Source: Clostridia bacterium (lineage in GTDB: Bacteria; Bacillota; Clostridia; UMGS1883). From it: 64,000 nucleotides of DNA. The notes beneath the pieces are model-generated. The model ran no database searches. It was not told the origin of the DNA and worked only from the letters and a program-made list of their open reading frames with translations. The stretch lies in assembly GCA_030527235.1 (NCBI GenBank), contig JAUNBL010000003.1, positions 31,065 to 95,064 on the forward strand. Reading direction: 5' to 3'. Made by a program: the position numbers and the translations under genes. Positions within the stretch are counted from its first letter, which is position 1, and every line of letters starts with the position of its first letter. Positions 12,511-31,422 of the stretch are shown in pieces.

Positions 12511-13925
12511 TGTATAACGCGAAATCCATGAAGGCTGAAGAATTTATCAGTCACGAAGAGGTAGAAGAGACTCTAAAGTATGCAGACAAAAATGCAGAAA
12601 ACGAAGCATTGATATCGGAAATTCTTGAGAAGGCACGCCTTGGCCGCGGGCTAAATCACACAGAGGCTTCGGTTCTTTTGGCGTGTGAAATTCCGGAAGT
12701 TACAAAACAAATATTTGACTTGGCGGAGCAGATAAAAAAGGATTATTACGGTAACCGAATAGTGATTTTTGCGCCGCTCTATCTTTCAAACTATTGTGTA
12801 AACGGGTGCGTATATTGTCCGTACCATGTAAAAAATAAACATATAGCGCGAAAAAAGCTTACACAGGAGGAAGTGGCGCGCGAGGTGATTGCATTGCAGG
12901 ATATGGGACACAAGCGGCTCGCGATAGAAGCAGGCGAGGATGAGGTCAACAACCCGCTTGAATACATACTTGAGTGTATTCATACAATCTATTCAATCAG
13001 GCATAAAAACGGCGCGATTCGACGTGTAAACGTGAATATTGCCGCTACTTCGGTGGAAAATTACCGCCGTCTTAAAGAGGCGGGGATAGGTACATATATT
13101 CTTTTCCAGGAGACTTACCATAAAGAGAGTTATTTGAAGCTCCACCCTACAGGGCCAAAACACGACTATGATTATCATACCGAAGCTATGGACCGCGCAA
13201 TGGCAGGAGGAATCGATGACGTGGGCTTGGGAGTTCTTTATGGATTGGAGCTTTACCGCTACGAGTTTGCGGCGCTTTTAATGCATGCCGAACATCTTGA
13301 AGCGGTTCATGGTGTAGGTCCACACACGATAAGTATGCCGAGAATTAAGCGCGCAGACGATATTGACCCCAGTGCGTTTGATAATTCGATAAGCGATGAG
13401 GTTTTTGCAAAACTGTGCGCGCTCGTCCGTATATCGGTGCCGTATACGGGAATGATTATTTCCACCCGCGAGAACCAGGCTGTAAGAGAACGAGTAATCC
13501 GTTACGGCGTATCGCAGATAAGCGGAGCATCAAGAACGTCCGTAGGAGGTTACGCCGAAGACGAACGTCCGCACGACACTGAGCAATTTGATGTCTCCGA
13601 CCAACGCACTCTGGACGAGGTGGTAAGATGGCTAATGCAAATGGGATATATACCCTCCTTTTGCACTGCATGTTACCGTGCAGGGCGCACAGGGGATAGG
13701 TTCATGGAATTGTGCAAGAGCAAGCAGATGCAAAACTGCTGTCATCCGAACGCGCTTATGACTCTAAAGGAATTTTTGCTGGATTATGCTACAGAGCAAA
13801 CGCGTGCAATCGGTGAAAAGATGATTGAAGCGGAGCTTCGGAACATACCCGGAGAAATGGTGCGTCGGCTTTGTGCCGAACACCTTGAAAAGATAGAGCA
13901 AGGTATTCGTGATTTCAGATTTTGA
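12501..13925 (+). CDS. hydG: [FeFe]-hydrogenase maturase HydG (radical SAM tyrosine lyase)
   Basis: CVNGCVYCPY radical SAM motif, C-terminal Cys-rich extension (CTACYRAGRTGD), 474 aa. Confidence 0.85.
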   Translation: MYMMYNAKSMKAEEFISHEEVEETLKYADKNAENEALISEILEKARLGRGLNHTEASVLLACEIPEVTKQIFDLAEQIKKDYYGNRIVIFAPLYLSNYCVNGCVYCPYHVKNKHIARKKLTQEEVAREVIALQDMGHKRLAIEAGEDEVNNPLEYILECIHTIYSIRHKNGAIRRVNVNIAATSVENYRRLKEAGIGTYILFQETYHKESYLKLHPTGPKHDYDYHTEAMDRAMAGGIDDVGLGVLYGLELYRYEFAALLMHAEHLEAVHGVGPHTISMPRIKRADDIDPSAFDNSISDEVFAKLCALVRISVPYTGMIISTRENQAVRERVIRYGVSQISGASRTSVGGYAEDERPHDTEQFDVSDQRTLDEVVRWLMQMGYIPSFCTACYRAGRTGDRFMELCKSKQMQNCCHPNALMTLKEFLLDYATEQTRAIGEKMIEAELRNIPGEMVRRLCAEHLEKIEQGIRDFRF

Positions 13926-13934
13926 GGTGATAGC

Positions 13935-15083
13935 ATGACTCTTAACGATACGCCGAACGCACAGCGTGTGCACATTGGTATTTTCGGCAGGCGCAACAGT
14001 GGCAAGTCCAGCCTTGTCAACGCTCTTTGCGGACAAAATGTATCAATTGTATCCGATGTACTTGGTACGACAACAGACCCGGTATCGAAAGCGATGGAAC
14101 TTTTGCCGCTCGGGGCAGTGGTGTTTTTCGATACGCCCGGACTTGACGACGAAGGAGAACTCGGAACAGAGCGTATACGCCGTTCACGGGATGTGTTACG
14201 CAAGTGTGACATTGCAATTATCGTGTGCGACGCTTCGGCTGGGATGGGAGAAATCGAGAACGAACTTGAACACGAGTGTAAAAAACGGGGAATTCCTTCT
14301 ATAACAGTGCTGAACAAGTGTGACATTAATAAATCTGACGGTCTGTGCGTGAGCGCCAAGACAGGAGAAGGGATAGAGGCGCTGAAGAAACGTATTGCAG
14401 CGATTCAGATTGGGCAGGCAAGGGCTTTGCTCGATGGTATTATAAAATGCGGTGACAATGTAATACTTGTAACGCCGATTGACTCCTCTGCGCCAAAGGG
14501 TAGGCTCATTTTACCTCAGCAACAGGCAATACGTGAGATTTTGGACTGCGGCGCCACAGCTATAGTCGTGCAGGAAAACGCGCTTCCCGGCGCACTTAAA
14601 ATGTGCACTCCAAGCATTGTCATAACAGACAGCCAAGTGTTTGAAAGTGTGGCAGAAGAAGTACCCGCTAATGTAAAACTGACTTCATTTTCAATTCTGT
14701 TTGCGAGGAAACGGGGAATCCTTGGCGCATCGATGGAAGGTGCAAAGGCGCTGGACAAACTTGCAGATGGTGATATAATTCTTATTAGCGAAGGCTGCAC
14801 ACACCATCGCCAGTGCGAGGACATCGGAACAGTGAAGCTGCCTGCATGGATTCGCAGGCGCTGCGGTAAAAATATATCTTTCGAGTATACAAGCGGCGCG
14901 CAGTTTCCGGAGGCATTGAATAAGTACCGTCTCATTATACATTGCGGAGGCTGTATGCTGAATCTGCGTGAGATGCATTTCAGATTTAGCAGTGCGGCAG
15001 CGCAAAATGTGCCGATTACAAATTATGGCGTTGCAATAGCGCATTTGAAAGGCATAGCGGAAAGGGCGCTGCAAGCTCTATAA
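13935..15083 (+). CDS. hydF: [FeFe]-hydrogenase H-cluster maturation GTPase HydF
   Basis: P-loop GRRNSGKSSLVNAL, DTPG G3 motif, C-terminal CxHx..HC cluster-binding region. Confidence 0.85.
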   Translation: MTLNDTPNAQRVHIGIFGRRNSGKSSLVNALCGQNVSIVSDVLGTTTDPVSKAMELLPLGAVVFFDTPGLDDEGELGTERIRRSRDVLRKCDIAIIVCDASAGMGEIENELEHECKKRGIPSITVLNKCDINKSDGLCVSAKTGEGIEALKKRIAAIQIGQARALLDGIIKCGDNVILVTPIDSSAPKGRLILPQQQAIREILDCGATAIVVQENALPGALKMCTPSIVITDSQVFESVAEEVPANVKLTSFSILFARKRGILGASMEGAKALDKLADGDIILISEGCTHHRQCEDIGTVKLPAWIRRRCGKNISFEYTSGAQFPEALNKYRLIIHCGGCMLNLREMHFRFSSAAAQNVPITNYGVAIAHLKGIAERALQAL

Positions 15084-15192
15084 AGCACAGACACAATCAC
15101 AATTAAACGATTGTGTCTGTTTTGTACACATGATTGCAGAAATAGTGTATTGATTTTAGAACTGCAATACAGTATAATATAAGATATAATGT

Positions 15193-16020
15193 CTATTGCG
15201 AACGCACTGATTTATAAGTATAGCTCTTGGAATTGCGGAATTCCGATGGTGTGCAGCCGACAGCTTGCTTGAAAACTTTCATAAAGTGCCGCTCTTCGTT
15301 GAACCCACACAAAGGAGCAATTTCTTTAATTGAAAGAGTTGTCTCAATGAGCAGTGATTTTGCCTTTTCCGTGCGGCAGTGCGTAATGTACTTTTTCAGC
15401 CCGATACTTTTTTCGCGCTTAATGAGCTTAGATATATATTCCTTGTTATAGTTAAAAATATTGGCGGCTTTTTCCACTGTAATATCAAGGTGGCAGTTAT
15501 TCTTTGCCCAAGCGCAAATCTGTTCTACAATGGCGTTTTCTTCTCCTACGGGGTCGGCGATTGCCGCCAACGCCTCGTGCACAAGTATTGTTGTGGCAAG
15601 AGAGGCGTCGTCCAGCCTGCGCTGAGCGAGGTAGAGCGTTTCCAAAAAAAGATTTGACAGGCGCGACGGGTCCTTTACATGCGCATATGCCGGAAAAGGA
15701 ATTGTTTCTTCATCGGAACAGTTAAAGTGCAGCCAATAAAAACATATCGGCTTTGTGCTTTCGCGGTAGCCCTCGTGCCAAACGTCTTTGTGCAGGAACA
15801 GAATATCGCCCGCTTCGACAACGTACTGATTGTTTTCTTCGGCAATGTACATGGTTCCGCTCTGCATCAGTATGAGTTCATGTGAATCGTTTACTTTGCG
15901 GGATAGGTGCTTCCACGGACGAGTGGTTTTGGTTATGCCGCACACACAATAATCAATCAATTTCACCGCCTCCTTTTGAAGGACTAAACATATTATAATT
16001 TCTGCGTTCAAAACTTGCAA
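15193..16020 (-). CDS. AraC family transcriptional regulator (cupin + HTH)
   Basis: C-terminal tandem AraC HTH; divergent from the secreted protease gene. Confidence 0.75.
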   Translation of the reverse strand: MQVLNAEIIICLVLQKEAVKLIDYCVCGITKTTRPWKHLSRKVNDSHELILMQSGTMYIAEENNQYVVEAGDILFLHKDVWHEGYRESTKPICFYWLHFNCSDEETIPFPAYAHVKDPSRLSNLFLETLYLAQRRLDDASLATTILVHEALAAIADPVGEENAIVEQICAWAKNNCHLDITVEKAANIFNYNKEYISKLIKREKSIGLKKYITHCRTEKAKSLLIETTLSIKEIAPLCGFNEERHFMKVFKQAVGCTPSEFRNSKSYTYKSVRSQ

Positions 16021-19664: not shown

Positions 19665-20519
19665 TTATTTTTCGGTTTTCACAGTGAAATTATTTCCATC
19701 GCTCGTAAATATGACGGTGCCGTCAATATCTGTTCTATAAATTGTGATATTGTGCGTTTCGAGCACTTCCAGAGCCTCATTTGTAGGATGATTGTACGAT
19801 TTCCCATCACAGGAAATTACAGCATATGTCGGGTTTACCCGCTCTATAAACTCTTTCTTGTTTGCAGATTTAGAACCGTGATGACTTACCTTCAAGACAT
19901 CTGCTGTTACATCAGATGTAATAAGCTCCTGACTCTCTTTTTCCGCATCGCCGGTGAGGAGAACTGAAGTATTCTTATATTCGATTTTGATAACTGCCGA
20001 GTAGTTGTTCAAATCGTCATATTCTTCAAGCGTAGGAGCGAGGCAACTGACGGAAAAATCTTTGTCTTGGCAAATAACCACGCCTTCTTTGGCTGTTTCA
20101 ATTTGGAGTCCTTTTTCATCAATGGCTTTGAGTAAATTTTCAAAAGCCTTGGTATTGTGAGTCACACGGGGCATGAATACGCGCTTAACGCCGAAGCTGT
20201 TTATTGCGTCGTCCAATCCCCCGATGTGGTCTGCGTGCGGATGTGTTGCAATCACATAGTCAAGTGTATCTGTGCCAGCCTCTCTTATAGCGCTTATTAC
20301 GCGGTCGGCAAAATTGACGTCTCCTCCATCAACAAGCATAGTTTCGCCATTTGGAAGGGTGATAAGCGAACAGTCGCCCTGACCAACGTCTATAAACCGC
20401 ACAACCAGATTGCCGTTTTGGCGCACAGTGCCAGAGGAAACGTTTAGCCCCGCTGGTGTACAGCCAAACAATGATAGGGCAACAAAGAGAGATATGAGTT
20501 CTTTCAGCATTTTTAACAC
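19665..20519 (-). CDS. MBL-fold metallo-hydrolase, ComEC C-terminal-domain-like (secreted lipoprotein)
   Basis: Lipobox LFGC, HxHxDH motif (ATHPHADHIGG), VSHHGS motif typical of ComEC-type lactamase domain. Confidence 0.7.
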   Translation of the reverse strand: MLKMLKELISLFVALSLFGCTPAGLNVSSGTVRQNGNLVVRFIDVGQGDCSLITLPNGETMLVDGGDVNFADRVISAIREAGTDTLDYVIATHPHADHIGGLDDAINSFGVKRVFMPRVTHNTKAFENLLKAIDEKGLQIETAKEGVVICQDKDFSVSCLAPTLEEYDDLNNYSAVIKIEYKNTSVLLTGDAEKESQELITSDVTADVLKVSHHGSKSANKKEFIERVNPTYAVISCDGKSYNHPTNEALEVLETHNITIYRTDIDGTVIFTSDGNNFTVKTEK

Positions 20520-20619
20520 CTCGTGATAAGTCTACAACATTATTTTGGAAATGTCAATTGACATCGTAATGTATATATGATATGATAAACACAATTCAAA
20601 TAAGCCGTATGGCTTAATA

Positions 20620-20790
20620 CGTGACATCGGTGCCCGGTAAAACGGGAGAATAGGGAATCAGGTGCAAATCCTGAGCAGTCCTGCTGCCGTGAAAGGCGAG
20701 CTGCTTCACAATATGCCACTGCGGTCTTTGCCGTGGGAAGGCGGGAAGCGGCGGTGAACCTCAGTCGGAAGACCTGCCGATGTTTGGGAA
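20620..20790 (+). promoter_or_regulatory. cobalamin (AdoCbl) riboswitch
   Basis: Conserved core AGGGAA-nnn-GGTGcAAaTCC, and B12 box GCCACTG at 20715-20721. Downstream hairpin gccttgac/gtcaaggc (20836-20855) followed by a U-rich tract as expression platform. Confidence 0.8.
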
Positions 20791-20895
20791 TTAAAGCAAC
20801 TTCACAGGGGCTTGAAGGGTGCGCTTTTTTAGTGCGCCTTGACTTTGGTCAAGGCTGTTGTTTAGTTGCAAAAAAAAATAAACGGAGGTATTTTT

Positions 20896-22062
20896 ATGCG
20901 ACGGACAATTAAAGCGCTATTTCTTACCTTGCTGCTGCTGTTTATTGCAACAACAGCTTTCGGAGCGCAGATTACTCCACAATTTCTCGCAAATGTTGCA
21001 AACGGAGGCTGTGATTGGACAGTGCTAAACATAGCCAGAAGTGAAGCGCGCGACAATTATGACGCATATATAAACGCACAACGCGAAAACGTAAGCGCCC
21101 GATACTCAGCAAACGGTGAATTTTCTTCATCCGTGACAGACACACAGCGTACCGTACTTGCTCTTGGAGCTGCGGGGGCAAATGTACGTGATTTCGGAGA
21201 GTACAACGGAGAAGCTATTGACCTTTTAGCTGATGCAACGTATAATATGAACCGTGATAGCGTTGACTGCCAGGGATTGACGAGCGCAGTTTACGGACTC
21301 TTGGCGTTGGACTGCGTAAGTACATTGGTGCCGTCAGATGCAAAGTTTACAAGGGAAGATTTTATCAACTCCATCATCTCTTACCGCCTTACCGACGGCG
21401 GCTTTACATACTGGGGTGAAAGCTATGACCCTGATATGACAGGCATGGTACTGCAGGCGCTTGCGCCTTATAAGGAGCAAGACAATGTAAAAGAAATAAT
21501 TGACAAGGCTGTGGAATTACTTGCGCAAAACCAGCTCGGAAATGGAGATTGTTCAAGCTGGGGCACGTCGAATCCCGAAAGCACCGCTCAGGTTTTGATT
21601 GCTCTTTGTGCGCTTGGCATCGATTATAGAACGGATGAACGATTTATAAAAAATTCCAATACGCTTTTAGACGGAATCGAAAAATACCGTCTGCCCGATG
21701 GCACATTTTCACATGAAGCAGGTGGTGATTCAAACTCTTTTGCCACGTACCAGGCAAACGCCGGCTTAATTGCAGCGGCGCGATTTGATGCGGGCAAGAC
21801 CTCTTTTTATAACTATGCAGACACAGCGGTTTGGCGTACAACGGCAAGTTTTGAGAATAATGTGGCGACAGTCTACAGCGATACAGCTACCGCTGCATAT
21901 TTCATTTCTGCCGAAATGGAAGATGATATTGTTAAAACGGTAAAGGTACAAAGTGTTGAACTGCAAAACGGAAAGAACGAATTTGCCGCTGAGTGCATAG
22001 GCTATGCTATGCTGCTCGACAAGCAAATGAGGCCACTTGTACGCCGTATAGAGGAAATATGA
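20896..22062 (+). CDS. secreted alpha/alpha-toroid protein with prenyltransferase/squalene-oxidase-type repeats, resembling the transcobalamin alpha-domain; putative cobalamin-binding component
   Basis: Signal peptide MRRTIKALFLTLLLLFIATTAFGA; repeated (T/P)DGGF / DGTF motifs typical of alpha6/alpha6 toroids; riboswitch-controlled; followed by DUF4430 gene. Confidence 0.5.
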   Translation: MRRTIKALFLTLLLLFIATTAFGAQITPQFLANVANGGCDWTVLNIARSEARDNYDAYINAQRENVSARYSANGEFSSSVTDTQRTVLALGAAGANVRDFGEYNGEAIDLLADATYNMNRDSVDCQGLTSAVYGLLALDCVSTLVPSDAKFTREDFINSIISYRLTDGGFTYWGESYDPDMTGMVLQALAPYKEQDNVKEIIDKAVELLAQNQLGNGDCSSWGTSNPESTAQVLIALCALGIDYRTDERFIKNSNTLLDGIEKYRLPDGTFSHEAGGDSNSFATYQANAGLIAAARFDAGKTSFYNYADTAVWRTTASFENNVATVYSDTATAAYFISAEMEDDIVKTVKVQSVELQNGKNEFAAECIGYAMLLDKQMRPLVRRIEEI

Positions 22063-22081
22063 CACGAAAGGAAGGGGTCTC

Positions 22082-22522
22082 ATGCTCAAATGGCTTGCCG
22101 ATACCGCAGTTGCAGGCGCGTTGATTGCAGCGCTGTTTACCCCCGTGGCTGATGTAAGTATTGATGAAATCATATACGAGCAATCGCCGTTTGCCACAGT
22201 AAGTGTTGAAGCATATACAGTAGGTGCAGACTATTTGCTTGAACCCACGGCTTTTGAAATTTTCCCAGGAGAGAATTGCGCCGAGTTTCTTGTTCGTGCA
22301 CTTGACGCTTCGGAAATAGAGTATACATATTCAGGCGCTGTCGATGAAGGATTTTATCTGCAGTCTATAGATGGTTACGGTGAGTTTACACACGGACCGA
22401 GGTCAGGCTGGCTGTATTTTTTGAATGATGAAATGCCATCCTACGGTATGACGGACATATTTCTTGACGAGGGAGATTGGATTCGTCTTGTGTATACTCT
22501 TTCGTGGGGAGATGACATATAG
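22082..22522 (+). CDS. DUF4430 domain protein (transcobalamin beta-domain-like), putative cobalamin-binding
   Basis: N-terminal hydrophobic anchor, GWLYFLNDEMP..DGDWIRLVY C-terminal motif characteristic of DUF4430; B12 riboswitch operon context. Confidence 0.6.
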   Translation: MLKWLADTAVAGALIAALFTPVADVSIDEIIYEQSPFATVSVEAYTVGADYLLEPTAFEIFPGENCAEFLVRALDASEIEYTYSGAVDEGFYLQSIDGYGEFTHGPRSGWLYFLNDEMPSYGMTDIFLDEGDWIRLVYTLSWGDDI

Positions 22523-22581
22523 AGAGACACATTTGACCTACGCGCTGAAGGCGCGCGGTTAACAATGCGGGGAGGAAAAAC

Positions 22582-23361
22582 ATGGGCAGCTCAAAGAAAA
22601 AGAACGTTGTGCTTTATATAATTCTTCGCCTGTTTGTATTGGCGATAATGGTGGTGCAGCTTTTACACGGGAATTATAGTAACGTGTTCTTATGCCTGCT
22701 GACGCTGATTCTGTTTATGATTCCCGTCATAATTGACCGGAAGTTTAACATCGAACTTCCGGGGACGCTTGAAATGATTATTGTCTTGTTCATCTTTTCT
22801 GCAGAGATATTGGGAGAAATACAAAATTTTTATAATATTATTCCGTATTGGGATATGATACTGCACACCATTAACGGGTTTATAATGGCGGCGATTGGGC
22901 TTGCTCTTATAGATATTTTGAACCAAAACCCCAACACGCATATAAATCTTTCTCCCGTATTCATTGTTTTGGTAGGGTTTTGTTTTTCGATGACAATAGG
23001 TGTTCTTTGGGAGTTTTTTGAGTTTGGTATGGACTCGGTTTTTCGCACCGATATGCAAAAGGACACGATTATAACGTCAATATCAAGTGTGGAGATAGAT
23101 GCGGCGCGCGACAATAATGCCGTTAAAATTGACTCAATAAAGAGTACGCGCATCATGTCAGATGGAGGCGCAACGGTCATTGACGGAGGTTATCTTGATA
23201 TTGGGCTTACAGACACTATGCAAGATTTGCTCGTTAACTTTTTAGGGGCTGTTCTCTTTTCATGCCTCGGCCTTTTCTATATTAAAAACCGTGGTAAGGG
23301 CAGTTTCTTAAAACGATTTATCCCGCGTAAGAGAAAGAGTAATGCACGATTAGAAAAATAA
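22582..23361 (+). CDS. multi-pass membrane protein of unknown family, third gene of the B12-riboswitch module
   Basis: At least five predicted TM helices then a polar segment and a final TM; no terminator between it and the DUF4430 gene; GGGGAGG RBS. Confidence 0.5.
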   Translation: MGSSKKKNVVLYIILRLFVLAIMVVQLLHGNYSNVFLCLLTLILFMIPVIIDRKFNIELPGTLEMIIVLFIFSAEILGEIQNFYNIIPYWDMILHTINGFIMAAIGLALIDILNQNPNTHINLSPVFIVLVGFCFSMTIGVLWEFFEFGMDSVFRTDMQKDTIITSISSVEIDAARDNNAVKIDSIKSTRIMSDGGATVIDGGYLDIGLTDTMQDLLVNFLGAVLFSCLGLFYIKNRGKGSFLKRFIPRKRKSNARLEK

Positions 23362-23397: not shown

Positions 23398-24150
23398 TTA
23401 TTGCAGCTGTCTTCCGGTGTGGTCAATTTTGTCGCTTGACGGAAAAATAAGATTTCCTACTGTGGAAAAAGTAAATCCCTTTTCTTCCAGATTATTTATG
23501 ATGTTTTCCAGAGCCGCTGCTGCATTTTTTGCACCTGTATGCATTAAAATAATGGAGCCGCTTTTGACACGAGACATTATGCGCTTTGGCATTTGCGCTT
23601 CGGAAAGTCCTTTCCAGTCAAGGCTGTCAACATCCCATTGAATACACTCTCGGCCGCTTTGACGCACGGTATTGACAACGCTGTTGTTGTAGTCGCCGCT
23701 CGGCACGCGGACCAGCTTTAACTCCTTGTCGATAACTTCTTTAATTGCACTGTCGCATTTGTCCATATCTGCAACTATTTCTGCATCTGAAAGCTGTGTA
23801 TACATAGTATGGTTGTAACTGTGGGAAGCTAATTCATGCCCGTCGGCATGAATTTTTTTTACGGCTTCAGGATATTTCTGTGCCCATGTACCGACAAGAA
23901 AAAATGTGCATTTGCAGTTATGATTTTTGAGCGTAGCCAAAATGGAGTCAATGTCGCCATCTTCCCATGCACAGTTAAAGGTCAGCGCAACCTTGTTGTC
24001 GCTGCGTTCAACGGAATAAATCGGAAGAATCTTCGGCGAAGTGGTTGCCTCCAGAACATTTTCTATTGAGAGCGGAAGCGCCACCACTGCCAAAACTGCG
24101 ATAAGTACAAACGTGAATATTGAATATTTGTCCATAACAAAAATTTTCAT
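23398..24150 (-). CDS. polysaccharide deacetylase family protein (PdaA-like, NodB homology domain)
   Basis: NodB motifs TFD-like (FNCAWEDGD), HSYNH, signal anchor; adjacent to cwlD. Confidence 0.7.
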   Translation of the reverse strand: MKIFVMDKYSIFTFVLIAVLAVVALPLSIENVLEATTSPKILPIYSVERSDNKVALTFNCAWEDGDIDSILATLKNHNCKCTFFLVGTWAQKYPEAVKKIHADGHELASHSYNHTMYTQLSDAEIVADMDKCDSAIKEVIDKELKLVRVPSGDYNNSVVNTVRQSGRECIQWDVDSLDWKGLSEAQMPKRIMSRVKSGSIILMHTGAKNAAAALENIINNLEEKGFTFSTVGNLIFPSSDKIDHTGRQLQ

Positions 24151-24860
24151 ATGCTTCCCTCCAAAACGGAATTGTAATATTTTATTATACCTGCGCAAAT
24201 TGCATCTGCAAGACGCACTTGATAAGTTTCGCTTAAAAGCAGCGCCTCCTCTTGCGTATTAGACATAAAACCGCATTCTACAATCACAGCAGGCATTGAA
24301 GCGTTTTTCATCAGGTAAAGCGATGAAGGGGCAGCCTTTGCCTGTCGCGTCTGGTTAGGAGGGTCTATTGCTCTTAGAGACTCCATAATGCTTTCTCCGA
24401 GCAGCGCAGACTGTGCAAATGTCTTTGAATACAGCACCTCTGCCCCGTAGTATGCCGAGGATGTAAAGTGATTCATGTGAATACTGACAAACATGTCGGC
24501 GTCCGTTTCACGCATTATTTTGAGCCGGTTTTGCATGTCGCTCCTTTTTTTGTTCTGCGCGCTTTCTTCATATATTCCGCGTTCGCTCTCACGTGTCATT
24601 GTCACAGAAAACCCCTGACTCACAAGTCGCTCGCGCAACACTGTCGCAACCGCAAGATTCAGCTCGCTCTCGGTTGTGTCCGTGGAACCTACAGCGCCGC
24701 CGTCAGGCGCGCCATGGCCTGCGTCAATAATAATGCGCCGAGTATTCTTGTGTACGAAACACTCAATTGGCATTTCTTTAGGCACACAAATTATGATTAG
24801 ACATAAAAGAGAAACGCATATCAGTAAAATAATTATTGCGCGTTGCAGTGTGATAAACAT
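24147..24860 (-). CDS. cwlD: N-acetylmuramoyl-L-alanine amidase CwlD-like (Amidase_3)
   Basis: IIDAGHG..GAVG motif, N-terminal TM anchor, GGGGTGGGG RBS before the ATG at 24860. Confidence 0.7.
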   Translation of the reverse strand: MFITLQRAIIILLICVSLLCLIIICVPKEMPIECFVHKNTRRIIIDAGHGAPDGGAVGSTDTTESELNLAVATVLRERLVSQGFSVTMTRESERGIYEESAQNKKRSDMQNRLKIMRETDADMFVSIHMNHFTSSAYYGAEVLYSKTFAQSALLGESIMESLRAIDPPNQTRQAKAAPSSLYLMKNASMPAVIVECGFMSNTQEEALLLSETYQVRLADAICAGIIKYYNSVLEGSI

Positions 24861-24927
24861 TAAATTTCCCCACCCCACAAAAAAATCCCCGATAACACAT
24901 TCTATTTGTGTGTTACCGGGGATATGT

Positions 24928-25479
24928 TTATTTCTTTGTCCCATATTTGAAGATTGAGAAAAGTCTTTGCTTAAAGTTTATCTTATGTTTGCCAAGTATA
25001 TAGCCAAATATGCAAAGTAGCATGTCAAAAATGCCAAAAAAAGGAATGAAATAGTCCGATGAAAAAACAGGAGAAAATACAGGAATGTTTATTCCGAAGA
25101 AAAGCTGCGGAACGTTTGCTTGTGCACCAGGTAAAAGAAGCGTGTAGGGCATGCCAAAAAGCCGCAGCAGTGTCAAAGAGTTCAGACGATAAAGAAACAA
25201 TGCAAGCAGCGCATGAAGAAAAGCGACAGCTGCGCCGACGGCTATTCCGTGTGCAACATTTATATCACTTTTGTCATAACTTTTATCATCGCTCGCGGCC
25301 ACGGAATAGCCCTCGCTCAACATGACCGACGCATAGCAAATAACAAGAAAGACGCCGTAGAGAACTTTACCCCAAGCGAACTTTACAAGCCATGCGAACA
25401 AAAACGATAGGGCGACGCAAATGAAGGCGAAAAAAACCTTCACCGCAAAAATTTTGAGCACGTGCTTTGCATAGCGCAT
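24928..25479 (-). CDS. hypothetical integral membrane protein
   Basis: Five or six hydrophobic helices, no recognised motif. Confidence 0.4.
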   Translation of the reverse strand: MRYAKHVLKIFAVKVFFAFICVALSFLFAWLVKFAWGKVLYGVFLVICYASVMLSEGYSVAASDDKSYDKSDINVAHGIAVGAAVAFLHALLALFLYRLNSLTLLRLFGMPYTLLLPGAQANVPQLFFGINIPVFSPVFSSDYFIPFFGIFDMLLCIFGYILGKHKINFKQRLFSIFKYGTKK

Positions 25480-26200: not shown

Positions 26201-26386
26201 ATGGCAAAGAATCTTACACCGCAGGCGAAAGCCGCGCTCAACAAGTTTAAGCTTGAAGCCGCGTCCGAAGTCGGAGTAACGCTTAACGAAGGATATAACG
26301 GCGACAAAACGAGCAAGGAAAACGGCAGCGTAGGCGGCCAGATGGTAAAGAAAATGATAATGCAATACGAGCAGAACATGCAGTAA
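26201..26386 (+). CDS. alpha/beta-type small acid-soluble spore protein
   Basis: KLEAASEVGV..GGQMVKKMI signature of alpha/beta small acid-soluble spore proteins; 61 aa. Confidence 0.85.
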   Translation: MAKNLTPQAKAALNKFKLEAASEVGVTLNEGYNGDKTSKENGSVGGQMVKKMIMQYEQNMQ

Positions 26387-30243: not shown

Positions 30244-31422
30244 CTAAAGCCGTGCCTTTATCGCTTCTGCCGCATCAAGTTTTTCCCACGTAAAATTCAC
30301 GTCTGAGCGTCCGAAATGACCGTAGGCGGCAGTAGATAAATATATCGGGCGGCGCAAATTAAGCCGCTCAATAATGACAGAAGGGCGAAGGTCAAACTCT
30401 TGCATAACTATTTTCTCCAACGCGCGGTCAGAAATAACTCCGGTGCCAAACGTGTTGATGTTGATGGAAACCGGCGCCGCTATGCCTATCGCATACGCAA
30501 ACTGTATTTGACATTTCGCCGCCGCACCGCTCGCCACAATGTTCTTGGCAACATAGCGCGCCATGTAAGAGGCGCTGCGGTCAACCTTGGTAGGGTCCTT
30601 CCCGGAAAAGCTTCCGCCGCCATGCGGCGCGTAGCCGCCGTATGTATCCACAATGATTTTACGCCCGGTAAGACCGCTGTCGCCTTGCGGACCGCCTGTT
30701 ACAAATCTGCCGGTCGGATTAACGATAAAGCGTGTGGCGTCATCAAGTAATTTTGGCGGTACGGCAGGGAAGATAACATGCTTTAACAAATCCTCTTTAA
30801 TTATTTCCTGCGATACGTCGGGTTGATGCTGAGCGGAAATAAGTACCGTATCTACACGAAGCGGCGTATCGTCTTCGTCAAATTCCACGGTGACCTGAGT
30901 TTTTCCATCCGGACGCAGATATGGTAAAATGCCGTCCTTGCGTACCTTTGCCAGGCGCATGGCAAGCGCTTGCGAAAGGTTGGCTGTGATAGGCATAAAA
31001 CTGTCTGTTTCTTTGGTCGCATAGCCGAACATCATACCTTGATCGCCTGCGCCTAAATCAAAACTGCCGGAACCGCGCAGTTCCAGCGCATTGTCCACAC
31101 CCATGGCAATATCCGGCGACTGCTCGTGGAGCGTGTTTAAGACCGCACAGTTTTCATAGTGGAAACCCATCGAGGGGTCGGTATAGCCGATACTTTTAAT
31201 TGTCTTTCTCGCAATAGCTCCAATATCGGAATAATGTGCAGTAGTAATTTCTCCGAATACCATAACAAGCCCTGTTGAAGCGCAAACTTCGCAGGCAACG
31301 CGTGCTGTTGGGTCGTGGGCGAGAATATCATCAAGTATTGCATCCGCAATTTGGTCGCAGACTTTGTCAGGATGTCCTTCTGTAACTGACTCTGATGTAA
31401 AAAGCTTTCTTTTGTTCTGCAT
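30244..31422 (-). CDS. metK: S-adenosylmethionine synthetase
   Basis: [18 protein letters not shown]-terminus, GGGAFSGKD motif. Track ORF extends further 5', but the ATG at 31422 follows a GGAGAGATTG RBS. Confidence 0.9.

Follow-up and report, generated by a model that had tools for sequence, protein, structure and literature searches.

We analysed a 64,000-nucleotide stretch of a Clostridia bacterium genome (GTDB lineage Bacteria; Bacillota; Clostridia; UMGS1883; assembly GCA_030527235.1, contig JAUNBL010000003.1, forward-strand positions 31,065 to 95,064), which we call the window throughout. In it, a cobalamin riboswitch precedes three genes on the same strand (Table 1). Gene 1 encodes a secreted alpha/alpha-toroid protein, gene 2 a small DUF4430 protein and gene 3 a polytopic membrane protein. 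An earlier note, made from the letters alone, had read the three genes as one vitamin B12-scavenging system, with the products of genes 1 and 2 as the separate halves of a transcobalamin-like clamp and that of gene 3 as their membrane partner.

Table 1 Features of the riboswitch-led locus, numbered from the first letter of the window.
Feature	Position	Strand	Basis
Promoter-like site, sigma-70-like (TTGACA, 17 nt, TATGAT, TG extension)	20558..20586	+	consensus scan, 11/12 matches
Cobalamin riboswitch aptamer (RF00174), full length including peripheral P6-type extension	20611..20795	+	cmscan
Expression platform, two neighbouring hairpins	20817..20865	+	terminator-like site and fold energy
Gene 1, secreted alpha/alpha-toroid protein, 388 residues, proposed corrin-cupping 'alpha' half	20896..22062	+	Pfam, model, Foldseek
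Gene 2, DUF4430 protein (transcobalamin-type beta-grasp/SLBB), 146 residues, proposed 'beta' half	22082..22522	+	Pfam
Gene 3, membrane protein with six transmembrane helices, extracytoplasmic beta 'handle' between helices 5 and 6	22582..23361	+	model

The leader of the locus was identified by Rfam cmscan as a cobalamin riboswitch with 117.2 bits (gathering threshold 31.5, E 9.9e-29), and the match covers model positions 1-189 of 189. Both the conserved core GGGAA..GGUGCAAAUCC and the GCCACUG B12 box are seen in the RF00174 alignment. The cobalamin class of the adenosylcobalamin riboswitch that had been placed before gene 1 is thus borne out, and the different class of RNA that the earlier note had considered as a contrary outcome did not materialise. 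It is the sole riboswitch that the Rfam scan found within the window. About 25 nucleotides 5' of the riboswitch lies a promoter-like site; the consensus scan yielded 8 sites of this kind in the region, with 6.3 expected, and we infer a function for this one from its position only. Of the two hairpins between the aptamer and gene 1, the second (20836-20855, 8 base pairs) is followed by the T-rich tract TGTTGTTTAG. The leader segment 20780-20900 has a folding energy of -39.4 kcal/mol, which corresponds to z = -4.3 versus shuffled sequence. An alignment of four riboswitch leaders gave no information on the expression platform. The terminator-like arrangement of this platform would fit a B12 OFF switch.

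Gene 1 starts with an ATG, with GGAGG 8 nucleotides upstream, and its product begins with a Sec-type signal peptide (MRRTIKALFLTLLLLFIATTAFG/AQ), in agreement with the earlier note, which had also given the coordinates of the gene exactly. Five x[D/N]Gx[F/C] repeats occur in the protein, among them TDGGF at residue 166 and PDGTF at residue 267. An AlphaFold model calculated with 54 homologues reached a predicted local distance difference test value (pLDDT) of 86.5 overall and of >93 across residues 30-310. In this model the protein consists of a single toroid domain of ~300 residues (about 30-310); beyond residue 315 the chain is poorly defined, and the C-terminal 80 residues are of low confidence.

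The repeats had been taken as diagnostic of the toroid used by transcobalamin (TC), intrinsic factor (IF) and haptocorrin (HC). They do mark the alpha/alpha-toroid superfold, but they do not single out transcobalamin within it. When the gene 1 model was compared with the PDB by Foldseek, alpha/alpha toroids of all kinds scored nearly equally (E 1e-4 to 1e-3, template-modelling score 0.35-0.49), including drimenyl-diphosphate synthase, squalene-hopene cyclase (SHC), prenyltransferase beta subunits, GH105/UGL hydrolases and transcobalamin. The latter appeared at rank 13 (7qbe_C, E 4.4e-4, template-modelling score 0.44) and rank 29 (4zrp_A), and the matches to TC:CD320 chains were no better than those to cyclases or prenyltransferases. 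Structure prediction therefore confirmed the toroid fold, but expressed no preference for transcobalamin. Among sequence families, Pfam Prenyltrans matched with 26.0 bits, slightly below its cut-off of 26.5; SQHop_cyclase_C matched weakly (21.1 bits, cut-off 26.1) and the NCBIfam squalene-cyclase family TIGR01787 remained far below threshold (23.7 bits, cut-off 322.7). Pfam Cobalamin_bind, the family of the TC/IF/HC alpha domain, had no match in gene 1 at E<=0.1. Using a profile built from the 54-sequence family against all PDB sequences, we retrieved class II terpene cyclases (7xr7, 1.7e-13) and SHC, and no TC, IF or HC chain at E<=10. A link to transcobalamin at the level of sequence was consequently dropped, as neither Pfam nor sequence nor family-profile comparison yielded one, and the likeness of gene 1 to transcobalamin is one of fold and architecture. 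A two-domain (beta-gamma) class II cyclase or SHC was also discarded, as it does not agree with the single toroid and with family scores below their cut-offs. The secreted location of the protein argues against the protein prenyltransferase beta subunit family.

Gene 2 begins 19 nucleotides after gene 1. Pfam assigned its product to DUF4430 (PF14478) with 50.1 bits (cut-off 23.8, E 3.8e-13) over profile positions 2-71 of 72, and its hydrophobic N-terminus TAVAGALIAALFTPVA is an anchor or a signal. Both features had been foreseen, as a membrane-anchored DUF4430 protein of the transcobalamin beta-domain type at exactly these coordinates. TCN proteins carry DUF4430 as their C-terminal domain (PMC4350170). 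Its counterpart in Burroughs et al. 2007 is the 'transcobalamin-like SLBB clade', in which a beta-hairpin is inserted after the beta-grasp helix and a hydrophobic residue of this insert stacks on the cobalamin base (PMC1796856). An exhaustive HMMER search gave 3015 representative relatives of gene 2, the closest of which are DUF4430 repeats within giant (1000-2700 residues) surface proteins. With a word-indexed homologue search the query itself was the sole match, and PDB sequence searches with gene 2 and with the DUF4430 alignment returned nothing meaningful. Small anchored DUF4430 proteins that are 29-30% identical to gene 2 are encoded between the toroid gene and EcfT at two other loci (L084 and L091), and these homologues have clear N-terminal transmembrane segments.

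Genomic contexts were then retrieved for eleven gene 1 homologues and searched with genes 1-3; the context statistics refer to 11 distinct loci. In all ten other pair-bearing loci (L081, L084, L086, L089, L091, L093, L094, L095, L097 and L100) the toroid gene adjoins a DUF4430 gene, and this holds even for loci whose precomputed Pfam annotation was blank. L092 was the only retrieved locus of a gene 1 homologue without a DUF4430 gene. One locus (L086) encodes a natural fusion, P0222, whose N-terminal toroid and C-terminal DUF4430 domain are ordered as in transcobalamin. Cobalamin riboswitches were detected by Rfam at L086 (38.8 bits, heading the operon), L094 (45.2 bits), L095 (60.8 bits) and L100 (75.6 bits), and at L089 a further one (45.9 bits) precedes the neighbouring DUF4430/dockerin gene. 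With the window counted, 6 of the 11 pair loci contain a cobalamin riboswitch versus 1 of 27 loci of gene 3 homologues used as controls (Fisher p ~0.001). Toroid and DUF4430 genes thus constitute a conserved module that is frequently linked to B12 riboswitches, in which genes 1 and 2 are the proposed alpha- and beta-like halves.

The surroundings of the pair differ among these loci. At L084, L086, L091, L094 and L097 the genes directly 3' of the pair encode the components of an energy-coupling factor (ECF) transporter, namely EcfT (CbiQ), a duplicated EcfAA' ATPase and EcfS. At L081, L089, L093 and L100 the pair is accompanied by genes for a MoxR AAA protein, a DUF58-like protein, a TgpA-like transglutaminase and dockerin/cadherin-like giants. 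The pairs of the window and of L095 are 'orphans' with neither context; L095 comprises riboswitch, toroid-SLH gene and DUF4430 gene, followed by convergent, unrelated copper-ATPase genes. No homologue of ECF T, A or S was found in the 64-kb window, as had been stated earlier for the genes around the pair, and no ABC signature motif occurs in window open reading frames of >=150 residues.

Some further features of the sister loci deserve mention in their own right. The MoxR-type clusters (L100 2326-10571; L089 6001-13095; L093 1316-12355; L081 4113-11746) share the order big DUF4430 protein, toroid, MoxR AAA, DUF58-like protein, TgpA-like transglutaminase and dockerin/cadherin-like giant protein. 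The cluster of L100 is headed by its cobalamin riboswitch (1944-2150), and a 784-residue DUF4465 (BtuJ-type) protein is encoded near that of L093. These may be B12-regulated MoxR/transglutaminase clusters for surface assembly. Upstream of the toroid/DUF4430/ECF genes, giant surface proteins of 1400-2030 residues combine toroid, DUF4430, Big_3/cadherin-like and SLH domains (L084 1-3714; L091 1-5374; L094 2658-7001; L097 1786-6870). At L091, where no riboswitch was detected, the toroid/DUF4430/ECF cluster is directly followed by an iron-dependent repressor fragment and feoA-feoA-feoB (12755-15884), a neighbourhood which may be relevant to a haem or iron reading of some family members.

Judging from sequence, the riboswitch together with genes 1 and 2 is probably a B12-repressed, extracytoplasmic module for corrinoid capture that passes its ligand on to an importer whose genes lie elsewhere. 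At low intracellular cobalamin, the riboswitch would permit expression of the pair. The product of gene 1 would be exported through its Sec signal peptide, and that of gene 2 would stay at the membrane through the hydrophobic segment at its N-terminus. Toroid and DUF4430 beta-grasp domain might then sandwich the corrinoid as two chains, in the manner of the alpha and beta domains of transcobalamin; we propose such a two-chain clamp because of the domain homology, the conserved adjacency and the natural fusion. An importer with its genes at another place in the genome would then receive the captured corrinoid; it would most likely be of the ECF-CbrT type, because sister loci encode EcfT-EcfAA'-EcfS directly downstream of the pair. 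Gene 3 would be an unrelated, widely conserved membrane protein whose gene is downstream by chance and may be transcribed by read-through.

In agreement with its previous description as a polytopic protein without recognisable family at these exact positions, gene 3 encodes about six transmembrane helices and has no Pfam family at threshold. The gene is separated from gene 2 by 60 nucleotides and has its own ribosome-binding site (GGGAGG). In the spacer, a hairpin with five all-GC base pairs and no U-tail (22541-22555, CGCGC-TGAAG-GCGCG) does not qualify as a canonical terminator; it could be an element of processing or stability. The gene 3 family is very large: a word-indexed search returned at least 8000 homologues, and the 120 matches listed, from Clostridia and Bacilli, are 55-64% identical to gene 3. 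We sampled 80 species-representative loci of this family with 5 kb flanks. Homologues of gene 1 or gene 2 were found within 5 kb by tblastn in none of the 80; the same tblastn detects both genes in all ten pair-bearing loci. A regular expression that finds the riboswitch of the window matched in none of the 80 either. Among the 27 gene 3 loci scanned with Rfam, no cobalamin riboswitch was placed to control the gene 3 homologue. Conversely, a gene 3 homologue was absent from 10 of 10 other toroid loci and present only in the organism of the window itself (L088). Profiling thus gave no support to the triad, nor to a role of gene 3 as its dedicated membrane partner or as a transporter. Gene 3 is most likely a bystander, possibly read through, and not a conserved component of the operon.

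A few observations on the same sample concern other neighbours of gene 3. The sole cobalamin riboswitch among the 27 loci (L059 1079-1259, minus strand, 68.1 bits) is located 3.7 kb upstream on the other strand and is directed away from the gene 3 homologue; the gene it precedes runs off the locus. S-adenosylmethionine (SAM) riboswitches were found 50-110 nucleotides 3' of gene 3 homologues at L006 (5877-5985) and L040 (5816-5922), and a third at L014 (8350-8460), 2.6 kb downstream of the homologue. The SAM riboswitch is a recurrent neighbour of the gene 3 family and is unrelated to B12. Synteny of gene 3 with its other neighbours in the window was considered and abandoned, as the polysaccharide deacetylase, CwlD-like amidase and metallo-beta-lactamase genes accompany it in 0 of 80 loci.

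Regarding the nature of gene 3, its model comprises helices 4-29, 32-55, 61-80, 90-114, 125-154 and 209-235 and a beta-sheet at 162-206. Compared with solved structures, this model gave no specific fold match to ECF S or T components or to any transporter. A divergent EcfT or S-component was rejected for this reason and for the lack of a Pfam ECF_trnsprt/CbiQ match. Invariant polar residues of the family include E79, D91, H95, N98, E144, E147, D151, D157-D161, D206, D211 and D215. The invariant acidic, histidine and asparagine residues gather at the predicted outer-leaflet ends of transmembrane helices 3 to 6, which suggests an outward-facing catalytic or metal site. A profile search, which the earlier note had foreseen as a check, produced DUF2238 (PF09997) below threshold only, with 12.1 bits on gene 3 against a gathering threshold of 26.4, and all 26 aligned homologues gave such sub-threshold matches (best E 1e-3). 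The gene 3 motifs E..(W/Y)D..H..G and (W/Y)E..E align with the DUF2238 protein YjdF of E. coli; hhalign of the gene 3 profile against YjdF was not significant (E 0.03, probability 1.6%). DUF2238/YjdF has been described as the 'Wok' family of the Lipocone superfamily, predicted membrane enzymes that act on lipid head groups (bioRxiv 10.1101/2025.01.14.632903). The gene 3 model appears to agree with the published description of this family, which gives an N-terminal extension of two transmembrane helices, a four-helix core, a 'handle' that connects core helices H3 and H4, and a cytoplasmic tail that varies; the C-terminal tails of the gene 3 family are variable as well. The polar site of the 'Wok' proteins faces the outer leaflet, as predicted for gene 3. 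All statistics are below threshold and do not establish membership; gene 3 is probably a distant lipid-head-group enzyme of the DUF2238/'Wok' type.

Several points weigh against the proposed capture module. The 60-nucleotide gap behind gene 2 contains no terminator, and co-transcription of gene 3 is possible; 5 of the 11 toroid loci have no riboswitch within the retrieved stretch; an importer for the captured corrinoid was not found within the window. By sequence, the toroid of gene 1 is nearer to terpene-cyclase repeats than to transcobalamin, and the protein has no obvious cell-wall or membrane anchor (SLH, LPXTG, lipobox or transmembrane segment). In the literature we found no report of B12 binding by a bacterial toroid/DUF4430 pair, and the sole experimental study that we found, on Lactobacillus sakei, argues for haem (bioRxiv 10.1101/864751). 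The missing anchor would suit a sequestration role, in which gene 1 is released as a soluble protein that holds cobamides back or stores them, and either docks onto gene 2 or has no importer coupled to it. The signal peptide of gene 1 is cleavable, its close relatives carry SLH domains whereas it does not, no transporter adjoins the pair, and extracellular relays and reservoirs of cobamides have been described for Bacteroides (PMC13616437). However, in most sister loci the pair goes together with an ECF importer, and repression by B12 through the riboswitch fits acquisition, so that we regard sequestration as unlikely. We give still less credit to capture of haem, or of a different tetrapyrrole that is not a corrinoid, as proposed for the L. 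sakei proteins Lsa1839 and Lsa1840. The operon lsa1836-1840 is reported to act effectively in the uptake of haem (bioRxiv 10.1101/864751), L091 adjoins feoAB and the gene of an iron-dependent repressor, and no riboswitch was detected at five toroid loci. Yet a 117-bit cobalamin riboswitch stands directly before the operon of the window, five other toroid/DUF4430 loci also have one, and a B12 sensor in control of a haem scavenger would be unexpected, all of which makes this reading very unlikely.

The position of gene 3 could be read differently from the way we read it. It lies on the same strand as the pair with no canonical terminator between, it sits where EcfT sits in sister loci, no other transporter was found in the window and its fold is unmatched in the PDB. 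Taken together, these features would fit a dedicated membrane partner, that is, a new kind of B12 translocator or receptor to which the clamp delivers its corrinoid. Against this stand the results described above: not one of the 80 gene 3 loci has a toroid gene, a DUF4430 gene or a riboswitch match, the only cobalamin riboswitch in 27 Rfam-scanned loci points away on the opposite strand, and gene 3 homologues are missing from all ten other toroid loci. Moreover, listed homologues with 55-64% identity and invariant acidic, histidine and asparagine residues look more like an enzyme than like a vitamin S-component, and 26 of 26 aligned members give weak DUF2238 matches. We accordingly hold a dedicated partner to be highly improbable, and even more so the specific scenario in which the ECF genes were replaced in this lineage by a riboswitch-co-transcribed gene 3 as new corrinoid translocator or membrane receptor for the clamp. 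Least credible of all, and close to negligible, is a catalytic gene 1, a terpene-cyclase- or prenyltransferase-like enzyme with a cell-surface isoprenoid substrate that would be only indirectly regulated by B12. The best sequence and profile matches of the protein are class II terpene cyclases and SHC, and its NCBI name is 'terpene cyclase/mutase family protein'. But the catalytic DxDD motif (D.D[DE]) is absent from its sequence, and D.DD occurs anywhere in just 1 of 54 family members; a single toroid of ~300 residues contrasts with the two domains of a cyclase; the Sec signal peptide implies no access to cytosolic prenyl diphosphates; Prenyltrans stays below its cut-off; and the toroid is invariably paired with DUF4430. 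The catalytic cyclase that the earlier note had named among the outcomes that would refute its reading was rejected on the basis of the single-domain model and the missing motif.

The proposed capture module resembles several known systems. Transcobalamin, IF and HC combine the same two folds, an alpha6/alpha6 toroid and a DUF4430-type beta domain, are extracellular like the products of genes 1 and 2 and have the N-to-C domain order of the bacterial fusion P0222. In the window, by contrast, the two halves are separate polypeptides, of which that of gene 2 is membrane-anchored. The link to B12 comes here via the riboswitch. Burroughs, Balaji, Iyer and Aravind described secreted, transcobalamin-like SLBB proteins from low-GC Gram-positives that are fused to or associated with toroids, predicted them to be B12 scavengers and put forward bacteria of this kind as the source from which animals obtained transcobalamin (PMC1796856). 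The pair of the window belongs to this class of secreted or surface SLBB (DUF4430) proteins with toroids. The operons of 2007 contain genes for CbiO-like ATPases and CbiQ-like membrane proteins, which the window and L095 lack; in the window, the toroid and the SLBB protein are encoded by two genes headed by a cobalamin riboswitch, and that term is absent from the 2007 text (PMC1796856). The ECF context of the sister loci is the arrangement of these 'CbiO/CbiQ operons' and also of L. sakei lsa1836-1840, where an ECF transporter is encoded with the beta-like Lsa1839 and the alpha-like Lsa1840 (bioRxiv 10.1101/864751). The L. sakei pair is likewise split into transcobalamin-like alpha and beta proteins that are encoded side by side, each with an export signal, but it is coupled to ECF S, AA' and T and claimed for haem uptake, whereas the window has a cobalamin riboswitch and no ECF module.

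As to the import step, the ECF-CbrT vitamin B12 importer (Santos et al. 2018, PMC5997447) would be a likely downstream acceptor for the pair. The lipoproteins BtuG, BtuH and BtuJ of Bacteroides fulfil the role proposed here, namely high-affinity extracellular capture ahead of a transporter under B12 riboswitch control (PMC13616437). They work with Gram-negative outer-membrane and lipoprotein machinery, which the organism of the window lacks, and none of the three families was detected in genes 1-3. The earlier claim that such a system is uncharacterised is too strong: the concept was published in 2007 (PMC1796856) and a split pair has been studied in L. sakei for haem, but B12 binding is absent from the reports that we found. 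The kind of system is already predicted, and what the window adds is its minimal organisation without an ECF module.

Extracellular cobamide capture by Gram-positive gut bacteria is still an open question, and a 2026 review calls such roles in Gram-positive Firmicutes entirely uncharacterised (PMC13616437). The toroid/DUF4430 pair, which is widespread in Clostridia and repeatedly found behind cobalamin riboswitches, offers a concrete, clonable candidate for this role, and its minimal two-gene form in the window and at L095 is the simplest version to express. The pair is relevant, too, to the proposal that transcobalamin of animals came from bacteria (PMC1796856). As the idea is 19 years old, its confirmation would be valuable, not surprising.

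The genes that flank the locus on either side are encoded on the minus strand. Divergent from the promoter region of the riboswitch lies the gene of a metallo-beta-lactamase-fold protein whose N-terminus resembles that of a lipoprotein (LFGC; 19665-20519), for which the precomputed annotation listed a weak match to Anti-Pycsar Apyc1. On the other side, a polysaccharide deacetylase gene (PF01522) and an Amidase_3 (CwlD-like) gene overlap each other and converge on gene 3 (23398-24944). Together with an open reading frame at 26201-26386 that resembles those of small acid-soluble spore proteins (SASP), the deacetylase and amidase genes suggest a spore-forming Clostridia host.

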